Source: Candidatus Pacearchaeota archaeon
GTDB taxonomy: Archaea; Nanobdellota; Nanobdellia; Pacearchaeales; GW2011-AR1
Length of the DNA stretch: 64,000 nt
Reading direction: 5' to 3'
Assembly (NCBI GenBank): GCA_040879785.1
Contig: JBBDJR010000006.1
Location: forward strand, 192,410 to 256,409
The notes beneath the pieces are model-generated. The model searched no databases, was not told the DNA's origin, and worked only from the letters and a program-made list of their open reading frames with translations. Below are positions 41,699 to 60,979 of this stretch, piece after piece (the first letter of the stretch is position 1; every line of letters starts with the position of its first letter). A program made the translations under genes and the position numbers.

Positions 41699-42910
41699 TC
41701 AATTATAATTAATTGAATCTTCAAGTATTGCCCTTGCTTTCTCAACTATTCCTTTCGCGATCGCGAGTTTGATTTCTCTCATCCTTCCTCCTCTTCCTTT
41801 TGAAATCACTCTCACATTAATTATCCCTAACATATCAAACTCCTGAATTATATCCCCCACACGACGCTGAGTAAGAACCTCTGACTTGTTCTTCAAACAA
41901 AGCTCCTGATAATAATTATAAACATCTCCTGTAAAATAGGACCCGTCAGGATTTTTATCTGAAAGCTCGATTATAGAATACAACACATACTGAAACTGCC
42001 TGGGCTCTGATTTGATTATATCGAGAATCTTGTCTTTTTCTATTTTAGTATTTGATTCATCTATATGTTTCAGGAGTATTTTATCAGACCCGTCTCTCTC
42101 AGCCAACTCTCCGGCAATTCTAAGAAGGTCCAACGCGCGTCTGGCATCTCCATGCTCTCTCGCAGCAAACGCAGCACACTTTTGAATAACTCCTTCCTGA
42201 ACGACCGTTTCTTTAAATGCCTGCTCTGCCCTCTTACTAAGAATTTCCTGAAGCTGTAATGCATTATATGGAGAAAAGACAATCTCCTCTTCCGACAAAG
42301 AACTCCTTACCCTCGGATCTATCCCTTCCAAAAACGTTAAATCGTTACTAATCCCCACAACCCCTACCTGAGCCTTAGAAAGCTCTGAATTAATTCTTGT
42401 TAAATTATATAAAAAATCTGTAGATATTTTTTTAACTGCCTGATCAACCTCATCAAGAATTAAAATCAAAAATTGTTTTTCAGAATCAACAAGGTCTATA
42501 AATCGATTATAAACTGTTTCTGTTGGAAGCCCTGTTTCAGGAACGCTCCCCCCTAACTTTTTAATAAGCTCTGCCAAAATTCTATATTCTGTATCTGAGA
42601 CTTTCCTTAATTTACAATTTAAATATTCTATCTTAATTTTATAATCAGCGTCTTTCTTAGCCCTTTTCAACAACTCCTCCTTAACATAATTCATTGATAA
42701 TGTTTTCCCTGTCCCTGTCTTTCCATAAAGAAAAAGATTGCTTGTCCTTTCTCCTCTTAAAACCGGAGCTAACATGGAAGCAACTTGCTTTATTTGTTCG
42801 CCTCTATGAAGAATCTCATTAGGCATATAATTCGATTGCAAAATTGACTTGTTTTTAAAAATCAAATTATTGTCAAAAGATTCGAAAATTTTATCAAGTT
42901 CAGACACCAT
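41699..42910 (-). CDS. cdc6: Orc1/Cdc6 replication initiator
   Basis: First ATG is at 42910 (the track start is GTG). AAA+ Walker A is GKTGTGKT and Walker B is ILILDEVD. There is a C-terminal winged helix. It lies adjacent to the candidate origin. Confidence 0.9.
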   Translation of the reverse strand: MVSELDKIFESFDNNLIFKNKSILQSNYMPNEILHRGEQIKQVASMLAPVLRGERTSNLFLYGKTGTGKTLSMNYVKEELLKRAKKDADYKIKIEYLNCKLRKVSDTEYRILAELIKKLGGSVPETGLPTETVYNRFIDLVDSEKQFLILILDEVDQAVKKISTDFLYNLTRINSELSKAQVGVVGISNDLTFLEGIDPRVRSSLSEEEIVFSPYNALQLQEILSKRAEQAFKETVVQEGVIQKCAAFAAREHGDARRALDLLRIAGELAERDGSDKILLKHIDESNTKIEKDKILDIIKSEPRQFQYVLYSIIELSDKNPDGSYFTGDVYNYYQELCLKNKSEVLTQRRVGDIIQEFDMLGIINVRVISKGRGGRMREIKLAIAKGIVEKARAILEDSINYN

Positions 42911-43049
42911 TTTCACAAGTTATTATTTTTGTCATTTTTATTTAAAGGCCCACACGTTGATTTCGTATGGAAAAAAGATTTTACAATCAAAACCTAACGG
43001 GAAAAAATTTATTTCCTATATAAAGACTTATGACCACTAATAAAGAAGG

Positions 43050-43068
43050 ACACCTAGATTTCCTGTGG
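43050..43068 (-). promoter_or_regulatory. ORB-like Orc1-binding box 1 (minus-strand reading CCACAGGAAATCTAGGTGT)
   Basis: Matches box 2 at 15 of 19 positions in inverted orientation. It contains the ttcctgtggaa dyad. Confidence 0.5.
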
Positions 43069-43308
43069 AACCCATAGAACAATAACAAAATACTACTACT
43101 GCCCTACATGTTCTACATGTTCTACTGCTAATATTTTACTCCCCTTATTATTCTTCTACCGCTAATTTTACAATTACTCTTACTTTTACTAATACTACTT
43201 ATATTATTATTATTATTATTATTATTACTTATCTATATACTATATAATATAAAAATTTATAAATAAAAATTAAAAATTAAAAAATCGATTTTTTCTTTTT
43301 AAATGTTT

Positions 43309-43327
43309 TCATAGGAAATCAAGGGGT
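43309..43327 (+). promoter_or_regulatory. ORB-like Orc1-binding box 2 (TCATAGGAAATCAAGGGGT)
   Basis: A GGAAAT core plus a G-string, as in archaeal ORB elements. It is inverted relative to box 1 and lies about 240 bp away. Confidence 0.5.
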
Positions 43328-43370
43328 GAGGCAAAACAATGTTGATTTAAACTCTATTTAGTTTTACAGA

Positions 43371-43382
43371 AAAGTTTATATA
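43371..43382 (+). promoter_or_regulatory. TATA box of the PRC-barrel gene
   Basis: aaagtttatata is centred about 27 nt upstream of ATG 43404. Confidence 0.5.
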
Positions 43383-43403
43383 TCATTTCCGTTTGGGTTA
43401 GAT

Positions 43404-44218: not shown

Positions 44219-44485
44219 ATGAGAATATCCAAAGAAAAACAAGAGAAGATCTCAGAACATATTCTTGAAACAATTTACTTAAACTCACCTTCAGCTCTTT
44301 TTACGTCCCATATATCCAAAGAAGTGGCCAGGGACGAAGAATTTGTTAAGAAGATTCTCCACGAATTAAAAAAGAAAAAACTTGTGGTTAAAATAAATAA
44401 AAACCCTCAAGGAGAGCCTTATTTAAGAAGGTCCCGGTGGAGATTAAGTGATGCGGCTTACAATATATACAAAAACCACAGATAA
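44219..44485 (+). CDS. Small winged-helix DNA-binding-like protein
   Basis: 88 aa with a helix-turn-helix-like segment (FTSHISKEVARDEEFVKKILHELKKKKLV) followed by a basic wing. Confidence 0.4.
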   Translation: MRISKEKQEKISEHILETIYLNSPSALFTSHISKEVARDEEFVKKILHELKKKKLVVKINKNPQGEPYLRRSRWRLSDAAYNIYKNHR

Positions 44486-44511
44486 TAATAGTTATATACT
44501 AGACCCTGAAA

Positions 44512-44522
44512 GTTTTTATATA
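44512..44522 (+). promoter_or_regulatory. TATA box of gene 44542..45324
   Basis: gtttttatata is centred about 25 nt upstream of the ATG. Confidence 0.5.
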
Positions 44523-44541
44523 GGCAACTTCTAATTTAGAC

Positions 44542-45324
<783 letters not shown>

Positions 45325-45603: not shown

Positions 45604-46218
45604 TTATTCATCTCCTTCGCTTTTTTTCTTACTTCTAACTCTCACTTTTGCCTTTTTTAAGAGTTTTTCCCTCGTTTCTTCAGGAATAAACACCCTTTTT
45701 TTCCCGTTTTTCTCTACTACTTCCTCAACCAAACCATCACTTTTCTGTTTTATCCGGTTTATATGGCCCCTCACAGTTGATCTCTCCTTTCCAAGTATTG
45801 ACGAAATATCATCATAACTAAGCCTCATGTCCGAATTAAGTAACACCCAAAGTATTGCTCTCTCAGTTACTGAAAATTGGTCAAAATTTGGTGTTTGAAC
45901 ACCTGTTTGAACACCTGTTTGAACAGCATAAACACCTGTTTGTTTATCAAACACCTGTTTGGCTGTTTGTTTTTGCTGTTTAGGTTTGAGCTCATTCATG
46001 ATAGAAACAACATTTTTTATACCTTCTATCTCTTCATTTATCGTCGATAAAGTTTCTTTTATTTCTTCAATGTCTTCTTTTTGTAAATTTCGCTCAGAAT
46101 CAAGGTGTTTAATCCATGTACTCATGGAATTTATGTCTTTTTTAACTAAATCAAAACTGTTTTTTGTGTCCTCTTTTAGACTTTCAACATCTTTTTTCTT
46201 AAAAAACCACCCAAACAT
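45604..46218 (-). CDS. Coiled-coil / repeat-linker / C-terminal wHTH protein (paralog B)
   Basis: Same architecture as 44542..45324. It has a coiled coil, a QTGVYAVQTGVQTGVQT linker, and the C-terminus FSVTERAILWVLLNSDMRLSYDDISSILGKERSTVRGHINRIKQK. Confidence 0.5.
   Translation of the reverse strand: MFGWFFKKKDVESLKEDTKNSFDLVKKDINSMSTWIKHLDSERNLQKEDIEEIKETLSTINEEIEGIKNVVSIMNELKPKQQKQTAKQVFDKQTGVYAVQTGVQTGVQTPNFDQFSVTERAILWVLLNSDMRLSYDDISSILGKERSTVRGHINRIKQKSDGLVEEVVEKNGKKRVFIPEETREKLLKKAKVRVRSKKKSEGDE
45897..45960. repeat. Four copies of [g/a]aacacctgttt within the CDS 45604..46218
   Basis: Copies are at 45897-45908, 45909-45920, 45930-45941 and 45949-45960. Confidence 0.9.
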
Positions 46219-46313: not shown

Positions 46314-46431
46314 AAACACCCTCCAAAAATACACTTTTATCATAAATCAAACACCTAAACACCCTTTAAACACCATCAAACAGCCTGTTTAAACACCCCC
46401 AAACAGCTGTTTATTTTTTAAACAGCTGTTT
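46314..46431. repeat. Iteron-like array upstream of gene 45604..46218: five aaacacc half-sites and three aaacag(c)ctgttt palindromes
   Basis: aaacacc is at 46314, 46349, 46357, 46368 and 46391. aaacagcctgttt is at 46378-46390. The perfect palindrome aaacagctgttt is at 46401-46412 and 46420-46431. Confidence 0.85.
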
Positions 46432-46525
46432 GGTTCTTAAAAATCTATTCTATCTTTCCGTCGACAAACTTAGAAAATCTAAGATAAATATCATAAAAAA
46501 CAGCCTCTTTTAGTAAACCTTAACT

Positions 46526-46544
46526 AAGATAACCTAAGTGAACA
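46526..46544. repeat. 19-bp repeat copy 1 (aagataacctaagtgaaca)
   Basis: Matches copy 2 at 18 of 19 positions and copy 3 at 18 of 19. Confidence 0.85.
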
Positions 46545-46574
46545 TGCCCCGCCCTTCAAAAAGATCAGTTAAAA

Positions 46575-46588
46575 ATTTCGGCCGAAAT
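46575..46588. promoter_or_regulatory. Perfect 14-bp palindrome atttcggccgaaat upstream of gene 46658
   Basis: It lies about 16 nt upstream of a TATA-like catttaaatta. The gene itself has a strong SD (ggaggtg at 46647-46653), which is unusual among the leaderless-type genes here. Confidence 0.4.
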
Positions 46589-46657
46589 CTAAGGAAAGAA
46601 ACATTTAAATTAGGAAAAAACTACATATTTTCATAAAAGGATGAAAGGAGGTGTAAA

Positions 46658-47002
46658 ATGTCAAATTTAAAAAACGCAGGTAAGTGGTCATTCATAATTG
46701 GTCTTGTAATAGCTATTTTGGCTGCCCTAATAACTGTTATTGATCAATCGATTGTCCTTATAGTGCTGTTTATTTTAGGTCTTGGGGTAGGTTTCCTAAA
46801 CATATCTAACAAAGATTCGACAAAATTCCTAACAGGACTTATTGCTCTTTTCCTAATCGGCGCTACAAGCCTTGGAGCTTTAACAATCCTAGGGGCTGTT
46901 GAATCATATGTTGATAGCATCTTGGAGAACTTCCTTGTATTTGTAGGATCTGCAGGACTGGTTGTTTCAATAAAGGTAATCTTTGAGACCAGCAAACAGT
47001 AA
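46658..47002 (+). CDS. Small membrane protein (3-4 TM)
   Basis: 114 aa, hydrophobic. It is preceded by a GGAGGTG Shine-Dalgarno. Confidence 0.5.
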   Translation: MSNLKNAGKWSFIIGLVIAILAALITVIDQSIVLIVLFILGLGVGFLNISNKDSTKFLTGLIALFLIGATSLGALTILGAVESYVDSILENFLVFVGSAGLVVSIKVIFETSKQ

Positions 47003-47046
47003 TTACACAACAATTTTTTATTTTATTTTATTTTTTATTTCTAATT

Positions 47047-47065
47047 AAGACAACCTAAGTGAACA
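47047..47065. repeat. 19-bp repeat copy 2 (aagacaacctaagtgaaca)
   Basis: Same orientation as copy 1, 521 bp downstream of it. Confidence 0.85.
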
Positions 47066-47131
47066 GAGGCAGTTTTCTGGACAAGCACAGAACACAATAA
47101 TTCTTAAAAAGTCGAGATATTTTGAATTTTT

Positions 47132-47410
47132 ATGCATAGAGATTCAGCAAATAGGGAGCTAATTAAAGGAGAATATTATCATGACACGCTCTCTACAAGG
47201 GTTTTTCATTTTACTGGAGAAGATGATAGCGGCAACGCACTTCTTCAGGATTTTTCAGAAAAGATAAGTCCTTACACACCAGGGTTTACATCTGACCTAA
47301 GAGGGATTTATGATATCAAAGAATATGTTTCAAGGAGAGAGCAAGAAATCTCCTGGTTACGTGGGAAAATCTCAATGTTAGAGGAAAAAGGAAAAGAATC
47401 ACAAAGATAA
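47132..47410 (+). CDS. Hypothetical 92-aa protein
   Basis: ORF with ATG start. Its stop codon lies inside 19-bp repeat copy 3. Confidence 0.4.
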   Translation: MHRDSANRELIKGEYYHDTLSTRVFHFTGEDDSGNALLQDFSEKISPYTPGFTSDLRGIYDIKEYVSRREQEISWLRGKISMLEEKGKESQR

Positions 47411-47422
47411 CCTAAGTTAACA
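47404..47422. repeat. 19-bp repeat copy 3 (aagataacctaagttaaca)
   Basis: Same orientation, 357 bp downstream of copy 2. Confidence 0.85.
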
Positions 47423-47456: not shown

Positions 47457-47579
47457 AGGCTAGATTTTAACCAAAAAACGCTCAAAATACAGTTTTCTAG
47501 CCTAAAACCCATTTTACGCGTAAAAGATTCGCATAATGTAGATTGTGCGAAGTCCATATATTGGGCATGTTCGAACGTG
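47457..47579. other. Cluster of four inverted repeats in a noncoding region (candidate structured RNA or protein-binding sites)
   Basis: aggctaga (47457-64) pairs with tctagcct (47496-503). The palindrome ttttacgcgtaaaa is at 47512-25. ttcgca (47528-33) pairs with tgcgaa (47546-51). The near-palindrome catgttcgaacgtg is at 47566-79. Confidence 0.35.
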
Positions 47580-47656
47580 ATTTATCTCAAAAAATCTCGA
47601 AAATACAAATTCTTAAAAATTTATTTTTACCAAATCTACCACCCCTTATTCCTTAA

Positions 47657-55387: not shown

Positions 55388-55710
55388 CTAGAATGTGGAA
55401 CCTTCCTCCAGAAATATTGTGTAACCAGCACCTGCTAGGAGAACATAAAGAACTCCATCAGGCAGTAGGAAGCATGAACAAAGGAAAAAGCCTTAAAGGA
55501 CATATAGAGATGGGCCAGATAGAGATTCATAACATAAAGAAGAGACACGACGAACTAGTTACTGAAATGATAAAAAGAGGATTCGTTCATATGTCGCCCT
55601 TACCTAAATTTAAATCGTTTAATGCAGGATATATTGACAAGGATTTTAATAAAAGAGATTTAATCTCAAGGTGTAATCAGTGTAAGAAGAGGTTTGAAAA
55701 TGGAATCTAA
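55384..55710 (+). CDS. T4 endonuclease V (DenV)-like pyrimidine dimer DNA glycosylase
   Basis: MTRMWNLPPEILCNQHLLGEHKELH parallels the N-terminus of T4 endoV (MTRINL...DQHL.AEYREL). There is a 4-nt overlap with the HAD gene. Confidence 0.65.
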   Translation: MTRMWNLPPEILCNQHLLGEHKELHQAVGSMNKGKSLKGHIEMGQIEIHNIKKRHDELVTEMIKRGFVHMSPLPKFKSFNAGYIDKDFNKRDLISRCNQCKKRFENGI

Positions 55711-56527
55711 AAAATTTCTCGAAAAAGTTGAAACAGATATAAAAATCTCAAGAGCCTCAGAACATACCTTAAAAAATTACATTAGGGCAAACAAAGAGTT
55801 GCTTGATTTTACCCGGAAAAATCCTGAAGAAGTCGATGAAGACGATGTAAAAAGGTTCATGGCAGAAAAACTCTCTGACAAAGCATCGTCCTCAGTCACT
55901 CTTTTCCTTTCTGCAATAAGATATGCATTTTCAAATGTTCTTAAAAAAGACCCTACACTCGGAATTAAAAGACCAAGAAAGGAAAAAAGAATCCCGTCCG
56001 TCTTAACAAGAGCAGAGGTAAAAACTCTTTTGAATTCTATAGACAATAAAAAATCTAAACTTATGATTTCCATGATATATGCTTGTGGGTTCAGAGTTTC
56101 AGAACTTGTGAGTCTTAAAATAAATGATCTAGACATAAAAGAAAAAACAGGAAGAGTTGTCCAGGCAAAAGGAAAAAAGGACAGGTTATTCAACATTCCC
56201 TCAAATCTTAAGAAAGCACTTGTAAAACATATCGAGGAACAAAAACAAAAAGAACAAGAGTATCTGTTCTCTGGACTGAGAGGAAGAATGACTGAAAGAA
56301 ATATACAAAAAATCCTGAAGAAATATGTAGGTAAGGTCGGAATAAAAAAAGATGTTCATCCCCACACATTAAGGCACAGTTTTGCGACACATCTTTTAGA
56401 GAAAGGAGTTGATATAAGAAAAATCCAGGAATTGCTTGGACATGCCGATCTCTCAACGACCCAAATTTATACCCACATCTCAAGTGAAGAATTGAAGAAA
56501 ATAAAATCTCCTTTGGATGGACTTTAA
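55700..56527 (+). CDS. xerA: XerA-type tyrosine recombinase
   Basis: First ATG is at 55700 (the track start is TTG). The catalytic region is HPHTLRHSFATHLLEKGVDIRKIQELLGHADLSTTQIYTHI, and an ACGFRVSEL box is present. Confidence 0.85.
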   Translation: MESKKFLEKVETDIKISRASEHTLKNYIRANKELLDFTRKNPEEVDEDDVKRFMAEKLSDKASSSVTLFLSAIRYAFSNVLKKDPTLGIKRPRKEKRIPSVLTRAEVKTLLNSIDNKKSKLMISMIYACGFRVSELVSLKINDLDIKEKTGRVVQAKGKKDRLFNIPSNLKKALVKHIEEQKQKEQEYLFSGLRGRMTERNIQKILKKYVGKVGIKKDVHPHTLRHSFATHLLEKGVDIRKIQELLGHADLSTTQIYTHISSEELKKIKSPLDGL

Positions 56528-60457: not shown

Positions 60458-60979
60458 ATGAAATGTGAAAAGTGCGGTCATGAATCAGATTCAAATAAAG
60501 AGATTTTGGGTGTTTTTCTTTGCAATATTTGTTATAAGCTTTCTCCAAGTGATGAAAATTCATTCGAGGAATATCTAAAAGAGAAGGTTGAGGGAGTCCA
60601 TCTTGAAAGCTTTAGAAAGCATTTCAAACCAGGAGAAAGACAACTAAACGGAATGGTAAAGAAAGCGATTAAAGGAAGCATTATGTCAAGGGCTCCTTTC
60701 GGATATAGAATTGAAAAAGGGAAACTCGTGCCGGCAGAAAACTCAAAAGAGGTGGAAGAAATATTTGAGGAATTTCTGAATGAAAACCTAAGCCTTAGAA
60801 GAATTGCAGATAAACACAAACTTTCCGTTAACGGTCTAAAAAAGATTCTTAGGAATTTCGCATATATAGGAAAGATAAAATTCAACAATCAGGTTTTTGA
60901 AGGAACCCACGAGCCAATAATCTCTTCAACTCTTTTTAATCATGTTCAGAACAAGCTTGAGAGGATTGGCGTTAAATAA
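60458..60979 (+). CDS. Zinc-ribbon protein carrying only the 'recombinase domain' of large serine recombinases (no resolvase catalytic domain)
   Basis: N-terminus has CEKCGH...CNICY. APFGYRIEKGKLVPAENSKEVEEIFEEFLNENLSLRRIADKHKLSVNGLKKILRNFAYIGK matches the recombinase-domain pattern. Confidence 0.55.
   Translation: MKCEKCGHESDSNKEILGVFLCNICYKLSPSDENSFEEYLKEKVEGVHLESFRKHFKPGERQLNGMVKKAIKGSIMSRAPFGYRIEKGKLVPAENSKEVEEIFEEFLNENLSLRRIADKHKLSVNGLKKILRNFAYIGKIKFNNQVFEGTHEPIISSTLFNHVQNKLERIGVK

Follow-up and report, generated by a model that had tools for sequence, protein, structure and literature searches.

The window analyzed here, a 64,000-nt stretch from the genome of a low-GC archaeon, a Candidatus Pacearchaeota archaeon (contig JBBDJR010000006.1, positions 192,410 to 256,409), carries an array of three short direct repeats that separate two small genes beside a probable replication origin. 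All genomes compared, including the assembly under study (G000; 552,617 bp in six contigs, 73% complete), are metagenome-assembled genomes (MAGs), from which element-bearing regions may be lost; G014 is the closest relative, the other G numbers designate genomes of relatives, and the genus set comprised 42 genomes, that is, G000 and 41 congeners. Protein families of the array region are given f numbers, among which f1, f4 and f8 correspond to the genes F0, F2 and F6, f12 to a serine recombinase, f19 to XerA and f72 to the 114-aa protein of the first unit. A sequence-only reading had described three co-oriented copies of a 19-bp repeat on the plus strand, spaced 521 and 357 bp apart, with one open reading frame (ORF) in each interval, the first encoding a 114-aa membrane protein and the second a 92-aa protein whose stop codon falls inside the third copy, and this description proved correct in every respect. 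When up to three mismatches were allowed, the window contained three matches to the 19-mer against 0.00 expected from 100 dinucleotide shuffles, and the genome-wide search that the same reading had proposed as a check returned, in the whole assembly, the three copies and one two-mismatch match 118 kb away. The 19-mer was found to be part of a dyad of 25-27 bp, which was named D.

The gene order upstream of the array runs from the DNA polymerase subunit PolD DP2 through an HD protein, DP1 and orc1/cdc6 to an AT-rich gap and a set of small genes, including three that encode winged helix-turn-helix (wHTH) proteins. The GC skew turns near the probable oriC, from which the array is ~3.5 kb away. 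D was considered as an origin element of the origin recognition box (ORB) type and rejected, as it is unlike the ORB consensus (TTCCAnTGGAAA plus a G-string) and bears no likeness to the ORB-like boxes of this genome, which sit 3.2 kb from it. Downstream of the array, a noncoding stretch corresponds to the xerA upstream region of relatives and includes a sequence like the B recognition element (BRE) and TATA box, as well as a site of the dif type, so that the overall layout is F0, D-unit-D-unit-D, dif and xerA. The coordinates of these features are collected in Table 1.

Table 1. Features of the D array and its surroundings in G000 (positions are those of the window).
Feature	Coordinates	Strand	Description
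orc1/cdc6	41699-42916	minus	
Probable oriC	42917..43403		ORB-like inverted boxes (TTTCCTGTGGAA; GGAAATCAAGGGGTG) at 42951-43328 around an AT-rich stretch, upstream of orc1/cdc6
F6 and F2	44219..45324	+	F6, 88-aa wHTH (44219-44485); F2, 260-aa coiled-coil wHTH (44542-45324); synteny conserved
F0	45604..46218	-	coiled-coil wHTH gene pointing away from the array, whose conserved left border it forms throughout the genus
D copy 1	46519..46544	+	25-bp dyad (12+1+12) centred on 46531 plus one further conserved base; holds 19-mer AAGATAACCTAAGTGAACA (46526-46544)
Unit 1 gene (f72)	46658..47002	+	114-aa multi-pass membrane protein; GGAGGTG precedes the start
D copy 2	47040..47065	+	19-mer AAGACAACCTAAGTGAACA (47047-47065); left half degraded (T-rich, TAATT), right half ACCTAAGTGAAC intact
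Unit 2 ORF	47132..47410	+	92-aa orphan; TAA stop at 47408-47410
D copy 3	47397..47422	+	19-mer AAGATAACCTAAGTTAACA (47404-47422); overlaps the stop codon of the 92-aa ORF
Noncoding stretch after last D copy	47511..47627	+	conserved with G014; contains dif and BRE/TATA-like ACAAATTCTTAAAAA (47605-47619)
Canonical dif-type site	47526..47553	+	GATTCGCATAA-TGTAGA-TTGTGCGAAGT (11-6-11); 105 nt after D copy 3
xerA, tyrosine recombinase	55694..56527	+	Phage_integrase and SAM-like N-terminal domains; RHSFATHL...GH...Y motifs present
Zn-ribbon and Recombinase-domain fragment	60458..60979	+	related to the second ORF of the serine-recombinase module of other species

In CRISPR arrays, repeats of 24-48 nt alternate with unique spacers, ~25-70 nt long, and cas genes are usually found in the vicinity. 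The spacing of 521 and 357 bp and the protein-coding gene in each interval exclude such an array, as had been claimed from the sequence, and a Pfam scan of 20 ORFs from 35.5-61.6 kb found no cas domains.

The likeness among the three copies extends ~5 nt leftward of the 19-mer (24 nt in total) and not into the flanks. Counted from the sequence, 8 of the 12 half-site positions of the first copy are dyad-symmetric. The consensus of D reads GTGCACWAAG-nnn-ACCTWAGTGCAC, and the alignment across the genus gives tGTGCAC-W-AAG-nnn-ACCT-W-AGTGCAC-a, with a length of 25-27 bp. It was observed that first copies are the most symmetric throughout the genus (ttTGCACAAAGATAACCTTAGTGCACA), and that later copies (TTAACTAAG) retain the right half, with the left half degraded and rich in AT. 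Measured against the ideal half-site, the right half matches at 11.6 of 12 positions in first copies and at 11.1 in later copies, the corresponding values for the left half being 9.5 and 8.0. With the right half good, the left half decayed and the centre variable, the 19-mer therefore corresponds to the good half of D plus its variable centre.

The T-rich tracts that precede D would agree with a terminator or an RNA 3′-end hairpin after each gene, as would the short and fairly regular distance from the preceding stop codon (a median of 44 nt in the element contigs described below and ~42-59 nt after f11 and f72 in hosts) and the strong folding of the viral D palindromes, at -17.9 kcal/mol. Nevertheless, such a hairpin is highly improbable, for the three copies of G000 fold at 0 to -0.9 kcal/mol, no better than shuffled controls, host copies conserve the sequence of one half and not the base pairing, and copy 3 overlaps a stop codon. 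A tRNA search and an Rfam gathering search of the window returned no tRNA or Rfam family at the site.

Other sequence elements accompany the first copy. At 46560-46590, a GCCC box followed by a palindrome comes after D (AAATTTCGGCCGAAAT in G000 and ATGCAAAAAATTTGCAT in many species); in relatives this element sits 35-45 nt after first D copies, its letters differing and its dyad being kept. Between F0 and the first copy (46340-46435), a AAACAGCTGTTT palindrome and iteron array was found that recurs inside the F0 coding sequence (45887-45961), and several congeners have conserved CAAACAGCCTGTTT upstream of their first D copies.

The content of the two intervals was compared with that of relatives. 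The f72 protein is 81% identical to its ortholog in G014, with a dN/dS of 0.085, which identifies f72 as a real gene; it is an extra, accessory paralog of a small membrane-protein family that is widespread in the order and was found in 35 of 41 relatives. A sequence-only proposal had been to look for presence or absence of the two units in related genomes, and the units do vary: the array copy of f72, flanked by D, occurs only in G000 and G014, and the 92-aa ORF only in G000, as no relative of it was detected in the 41 congeners or among 5.8 billion proteins. The sequence TTCTTAAAAA at 47102-47111, ~25 nt upstream of the ATG of this ORF, suggests that its transcript may be leaderless. The alignment of G000 with G014 runs from F0 through D copy 2, breaks exactly at 47065 and resumes 89 nt after copy 3, and the second D copy of G014 is flanked on its left as G000 copy 2 is and on its right as G000 copy 3 is. 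Because of these mixed flanks and of breakpoints located at the copies, the 92-aa unit together with one D copy (357 bp) constitutes a copy-bounded indel, and the two arrays differ by exactly this one D-bounded unit. When homology breakpoints were counted over all genome pairs, 116 fell at D against 80 +/- 9 expected, a modest enrichment that is partly inherent to a conserved island within variable DNA and that counts as weak support.

D arrays are a general property of the genus. The 19-mer with up to two mismatches was recovered from 15 of the 24 congeners covered by a first scan, a degenerate pattern from 38 of the 42 genus genomes, and a position matrix detected two to three co-oriented D copies on one contig in ~32 of the 42, at a single syntenic locus with the order oriC/cdc6, three wHTH genes, D array and then xerA. 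Multi-copy matches to the motif occurred only in MAGs labelled Pacearchaeota, Woesearchaeota or Nanoarchaeota, and D arrays upstream of xerA were also found in at least seven other genera, with variants such as ACCAAAGTGCAC and ACCTAAGAGCAC. Wherever the flank suffices, the left side is syntenic (f6, f7, f8, f4 and f1, the last on the minus strand), in contrast to the genes between the D copies, which vary among species and comprise at least 12 families plus orphans. The first interval mostly holds f11 (55 aa, two transmembrane segments) or f27 (~93 aa, transmembrane), later intervals hold f39, f90, f110, f113, f69 or species-specific orphans, and f25 (45 aa, transmembrane) follows the last or the second D copy. 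The first-position units f27 and f11 are widely shared, and the orphan 92-aa unit of G000 adjoins the last D; this distribution suggests an age gradient along the array.

In the arrays of G020, G016 and G021, a diverged D variant (CTTAGGGCACCCTAAGTGAAC), with a TATA-like box in front of it, lies 40-150 nt after f25; the matrix scan therefore undercounts the decayed or variant copies of the arrays. The breaks of the host contigs lie within F0, a repeat-rich gene, and a perfect palindrome can by itself interrupt an assembly. In view of these causes, the location of an array or of a viral palindrome near a contig end was discounted as a sign of population variability.

The site at 47526-47553, of which no second copy exists in the G000 assembly, is identical at 21 of 28 positions to the dif of E. 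coli. The equivalent site of G044, TTCGTATAA-TGTACC-TTATACGAA, agrees at 20 of 24 positions, including the whole spacer, with the dif of T. kodakarensis, which was validated by chromatin immunoprecipitation (PMC11840125). The 47526-47553 site is the probable chromosomal dif of this Pacearchaeota genome, and it lies ~4 kb from oriC, whereas the dif of Thermococcales is at the terminus (PMC2958812). Within the genus, dif was found only in XerA-positive genomes, as a single copy in seven of the eight genomes with a match (the exception being G022), and 49-63 nt upstream of xerA where the two are adjacent (G022, G015 and G049). In seven genomes, dif lies 99-126 nt after the last D copy, irrespective of how far away xerA is (49 nt to 8 kb from dif).

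D itself is not dif, given the separate canonical site 105 nt away. First, a dif core consists of imperfect 11-bp inverted repeats around a 6-bp spacer, with ATAA-N6-TTAT conserved in it; the nearby site has this 11-6-11 architecture, but D is 12-1-12 (or 10-7-10) and agrees with the dif of T. kodakarensis at no more than 15 of 28 positions. Second, dif is single-copy and goes with xer, whereas D is present in two to three copies per genome and is kept in at least 10 genomes without xerA. A review of archaeal tyrosine recombinases likewise treats dif as single-copy and makes no mention of integrative mobile elements exploiting Xer (IMEX). The resemblance to archaeal XerA/dif and to the single-recombinase modules difSL-XerS and difH-XerH accordingly belongs to the 47526-47553 site and not to the 19-mer.

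The sequence-only reading had also stated that no recombinase gene is adjacent to the repeats. This holds for G000, in which xerA begins 8.3 kb beyond the array (8.1 kb from dif) and the recombinase fragment lies still farther away, but not for relatives, whose arrays are followed immediately by dif and xerA or by a serine recombinase. The XerA ortholog f19 (58-67% identity) follows the last D within 2.5 kb in 11 genomes, and in four of the genomes with xerA its start lies 130-196 nt beyond the last D. Elsewhere, in at least 10 genomes (G021, G009, G020, G024, G007, G042, G043, G016, G047 and G018), the place of xerA is taken by the serine recombinase f12 (~250 aa, with resolvase and Recombinase domains), often accompanied by an ORF with HNH and Recombinase domains; in these 10 genomes no intact xerA and no detectable dif were found, G024 having only a xerA fragment at a contig end. 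According to a tree of the flanking proteins, the f12 module replaced dif-xerA at least three times. Both recombinases are present in G046, with xerA 11 kb away, and xerA is ~8 kb away in G014 as in G000; inserts of 8-11 kb part dif from xerA in these three genomes. The position directly after the array is thus a recurrent hotspot of insertion and replacement, as seen from the f12 swaps and from the 8-11-kb inserts. In other genera of the family, direct 18-mer repeats near xerA were more frequent upstream (8 of 22) than downstream (1 of 28), and a generic strong dyad upstream of xerA was not enriched (8 of 27 against 54 of 145 controls).

The fixed spacing between the last D and dif, maintained wherever xerA sits, raises the possibility that D is an accessory site of the Xer/dif system, in which the last copy would bind an architectural protein controlling XerA at dif and the upstream copies would be duplicates. 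ArgR or ArcA boxes, located ~100 bp from the cer and psi cores, provide a model for such an arrangement. Mobile elements that pair D with dif-arm-like repeats, and the conserved repeats that flank archaeal dif in Thermococcales (PMC2958812), point in the same direction. However, D persists where dif and xerA are absent, the first and second copies are 0.4-0.9 kb from dif, and the D of viruses stands at capsid promoters with no dif nearby, which makes an accessory role improbable.

Several further observations were made on the recombinases and their sites. G022 contains two extra dif-like sites (G022:C1:192587-192610 and 196618-196641), 4 kb apart and 117-121 kb from its dif-xerA locus, which could be the borders of a dif-flanked inserted element. 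At the locus L187 (G058), xerA is preceded at 702 nt by a full dif-type site and at 55 nt by a half-dif, with a good left arm and another right arm (TTCGCACAATCCAATATATGAAAA); half-dif sites of this kind are also present in L186, L197, L209 and L212. Such full and half sites resemble the pair, one intact and one modified, that an insertion at dif leaves behind. In two species (G001:C49:1579-3500; G017:C18; L026 and L030), XerA is 620-640 aa long and the XerA match is interrupted by ~350 aa of inserted sequence resembling an intein, and many arrays have HNH-endonuclease ORFs along with xerA or the serine recombinase.

D is also carried by mobile DNA, having been found in 11 IMG/VR contigs and 114 metagenome contigs (L055, L063 and L100 among them), mostly as a near-perfect palindrome (TGTGCACTAAGGTNACCTTAGTGCACA). 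The viral form, TGTGCACTAA-GGTNACC-TTAGTGCACA, contains TAA-N7-TTA, in keeping with the TAA(N)6-8TTA pattern described for archaeal Xer sites (PMC11840125). The viral D of L059 is identical to the 19-mer of G014 at 19 of 19 positions, and a tyrosine integrase gene lies 105-180 nt beyond D in 19 contigs, reading away from D in 18 of them. A core shared by a mobile element, beside its integrase gene, and by the host chromosome, as expected of attP and attB, was thereby observed. In one class of elements (33 of 89 contigs), D follows at 15-70 nt from the end of a P-loop ATPase gene, and dif-arm-like repeats (GGATTGTGCGAAC), enriched 11-fold, flank D in contigs of the integrase and ATPase classes. 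The contig L055 represents a head-tail virus and encodes a terminase, a portal protein and a major head protein; D was located ~140-730 nt upstream of the gene for the large terminase subunit (TerL), heading the terminase operon, in 12 contigs, and 0-36 nt before a scaffold-like gene (133-141 aa) ahead of the major capsid gene in at least six (L055, L063, L081, L087, L096 and L129). In addition, a noncoding palindrome (AGTTATTCGGTACACCGAATAACT) occurs near D in L073, L082, L083, L107, L135 and L149, which include terminase-class and integrase-class contigs alike; both classes are therefore tied to one kind of element.

These viral positions bear on the possibility that D is an operator for a dimeric transcription regulator, such as the candidate binders F2 or F6. 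D would then head the small host units, viruses and elements would use it to control their integrase, terminase and capsid operons, and the indels would come from homologous recombination between repeated promoter-operators. LexA boxes at phage and integron-integrase promoters are host-regulator boxes reused in this manner, and D resembles them in that one palindrome stands ahead of recombinase, small membrane-protein and viral late genes. The scaffold-like gene of at least six viral contigs has D exactly between its consensus TATA box and its start codon, and the copies that head the terminase operon of 12 contigs agree with the same role. D is always intergenic and oriented as the downstream genes. 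In hosts, start codons lie 4-50 nt downstream of it for f90, f39 and f25, and a TATA-like left flank was found in 15 of 41 later copies, compared with 4 of 32 first copies and 66 of 640 in the background. Moreover, conservation of D does not depend on the type of recombinase present, and three conserved wHTH genes adjoin the array.

The geometry, however, is inconsistent: the distance from D to the next start codon varies between 4 and 210 nt in hosts, the distance from the previous stop codon being shorter (-12 to ~100 nt), and the integrase, TerL and xerA genes have their promoters ~80-190 nt downstream of D. When its position relative to promoters was assessed, D was constrained at the viral scaffold promoters and plausibly placed for some later host copies, while at the integrase, TerL and xerA genes and at first copies it was 80-210 nt off. 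Unlike ordinary host-regulator boxes, the host sites number only two to three per genome, all at one locus; the 12-bp half-sites are long for an archaeal regulator, no regulator common to host and viral contigs was found, and the fixed spacing to dif and the recombinase neighborhood are left unexplained. An operator role is the main alternative to the reading favored below, and is somewhat unlikely. The shared regulatory or terminator element that the sequence-only reading had offered as an alternative fits in its regulatory part the TATA-D-ATG arrangement at viral capsid-module genes, and fails for G000 in its terminator-hairpin part.

In L100 (~2720-2830 in the minus-strand view), four ORB-like boxes (CTCCACTGGAAAC) were observed directly beside D, upstream of TerL, where they probably form a viral replication origin that would use host Orc1/Cdc6-type recognition. 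D could, in this light, be a centromere-like or chromosome-organization site near oriC that is bound by a coiled-coil wHTH protein, with viruses and elements hitch-hiking on host segregation and the small genes merely lying between the sites. The cluster of two to three palindromic sites 3.5 kb from oriC/cdc6, conserved across the genus and neighbored by genes for coiled-coil wHTH proteins, speaks for this explanation, and the sopC sites of the phage-plasmid N15, which lie near late promoters, give it a precedent. Yet no ParA-type ATPase is linked to the locus, and neither the co-orientation and asymmetric left half-site decay of the copies nor the fixed spacing to dif and the copy-bounded indel would be explained, so that a segregation role may be considered a poor prospect.

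The reading that we tentatively favor is that D is an attachment or module-junction site in an Xer-linked zone of gene turnover. A junction role is preferred because co-oriented copies bound variable units that lack an integrase, an orphan unit lies beside the last D, and the arrays occupy a single locus per genome; it is also preferred because of the fixed coupling to dif, the recurrent replacement beyond the array and the occurrence of D beside element integrase genes. D lies ~105 nt upstream of dif and, in the ancestral layout, just upstream of xerA. According to this proposal, DNA carrying D would arrive via the viruses of the lineage, small integrase-bearing elements or strain-to-strain exchange, and the incoming D would recombine at the chromosomal one. 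Each insertion would add one co-oriented D copy and a small self-contained gene with its own promoter, ORF and T-rich end, the new unit landing upstream of the last D-dif pair, and recombination between D copies would delete units again. Element integrases acting in trans, XerA or a neighboring wHTH protein (F2, F6 or F0) are candidates for the protein that would bind D.

Several observations weigh against a junction role. First, the order of units is mostly constant (f27, f11, a variable unit and f25), and shuffling must therefore be rare; the central 7-mer differs between copies in 24 of 29 arrays, which for a tyrosine recombinase would block exchange between resident copies; and the clean copy-bounded indel documented above is the only one. 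Second, at least 10 genomes with neither xerA nor dif still conserve D, which must therefore be maintained through a host binder distinct from XerA. For this same reason, D appears clearly to be a protein-binding site under selection in the host. Third, the D of L055 and L063 is placed as an operator would be, exactly between the TATA box of the scaffold-like gene and its ATG; viruses carry up to two D copies; and the integrases encoded beside near-identical D sites share only ~28% identity, which implies that D is not their private core site.

Searches for integration products gave negative results as well. No D-flanked integrated element and no excision circle was detected in the genus genomes and D-bearing contigs, none of the 42 genus genomes presented an element bounded by attL and attR, and no contig joining host near-origin genes to viral genes was found among the D-bearing contigs. 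The element integrase and the element P-loop ATPase were absent from the 42 genus genomes, and no gene for either of them or for a viral structural protein was observed beside any of the 32 arrays or anywhere in these genomes. D-bounded proviruses were looked for and rejected, since, of 301 genomes of the order, 5 contained terminase homologs, and in none of these was D close by. The cassette-array interpretation put forward in the sequence-only reading therefore stands in part: the units vary, the indel is bounded by repeats and recombinases adjoin the array in relatives, but no excision circle or integrated element was seen.

A broader and somewhat doubtful version of the junction proposal is an origin-side platform for gene capture, in which D, at a fixed distance from dif, would serve as the landing or exchange site for single-gene modules and be common to the tailed viruses and small integrase-bearing elements of the lineage, the recombinase being interchangeable (XerA, element integrases or the serine recombinase). 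Such a platform would be an Xer-linked archaeal analogue of integrons and pdif modules that uses neither IntI nor attC.

Among known systems, IMEX show a similar organization. It was reported that integration of LME-1 at the dif of Legionella leaves one intact and one modified copy (PMC9765430). Similarly, co-oriented sites flank inserted DNA at an Xer locus here, the units between the direct repeats, 105 nt from dif, carry no integrase, the site also occurs on mobile DNA, and the first copy is intact and later copies modified. In contrast to IMEX and LME-1, whose site mimics dif and is recombined by the host Xer, the repeated site is a dyad ~105 nt from dif that is unlike dif and kept without XerA; the units are single small genes rather than phage-sized, the host is an archaeon, the locus lies beside oriC and not at the terminus, and no integration event was observed. 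The pdif modules of Acinetobacter resemble the D array as tiny one- or two-gene modules bounded by short dyads linked to Xer recombination (PMC7399989); pdif modules are bounded by true XerC/XerD sites in alternating orientation on plasmids, unlike D, which is co-oriented, chromosomal and distinct from dif.

The attC sites of integrons are imperfect palindromes of 55-140 nt that fold as single strands (R''-L''...L'-R'). An identity of D with attC was rejected, since the likeness among its copies covers only ~25 nt, the copies of G000 fold like shuffled sequences and no Rfam match was obtained in the window. Nor could the array be assigned to an integron or to a cluster of attC sites lacking integron-integrases (CALIN) through an IntI with its specific additional domain, as the only recombinases near the arrays are XerA orthologs (275 aa), the ~250-aa serine recombinase and the Phage_integrase proteins of elements; no IntI-specific model was run. 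Archaeal integrons require IntI and folded attC (Ghaly et al. 2022, PMC9668308), and neither occurs here. The array is nonetheless like integrons and CALINs in its tandem co-oriented short ORFs split by a repeated site, in a content that varies among relatives and in a first site that is systematically different. It is unlike them in that 25-bp duplex-type dyads take the place of folded attC, the units appear to carry their own promoters, and the neighboring recombinase gene, XerA or a serine recombinase in place of IntI, is downstream of the array.

The location of dif in this lineage and the distinction of D from it go beyond the sequence-only reading. DPANN genomes are tiny, and the gain and loss of their accessory genes are poorly understood; the locus described here is a conserved, origin-proximal zone of small-gene turnover that is bounded by a 25-bp site and physically tied to dif and xerA. 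If D is a recombination junction, this zone would represent an archaeal Xer-linked system of gene exchange; if it is an operator, D would represent a regulatory code common to the host and viruses of an uncultivated lineage. Whichever is true, a probable Pacearchaeota dif with a striking similarity to bacterial dif has been located beside oriC, and D provides a sequence tag that links ~100 uncultivated viral and element contigs to this host group.

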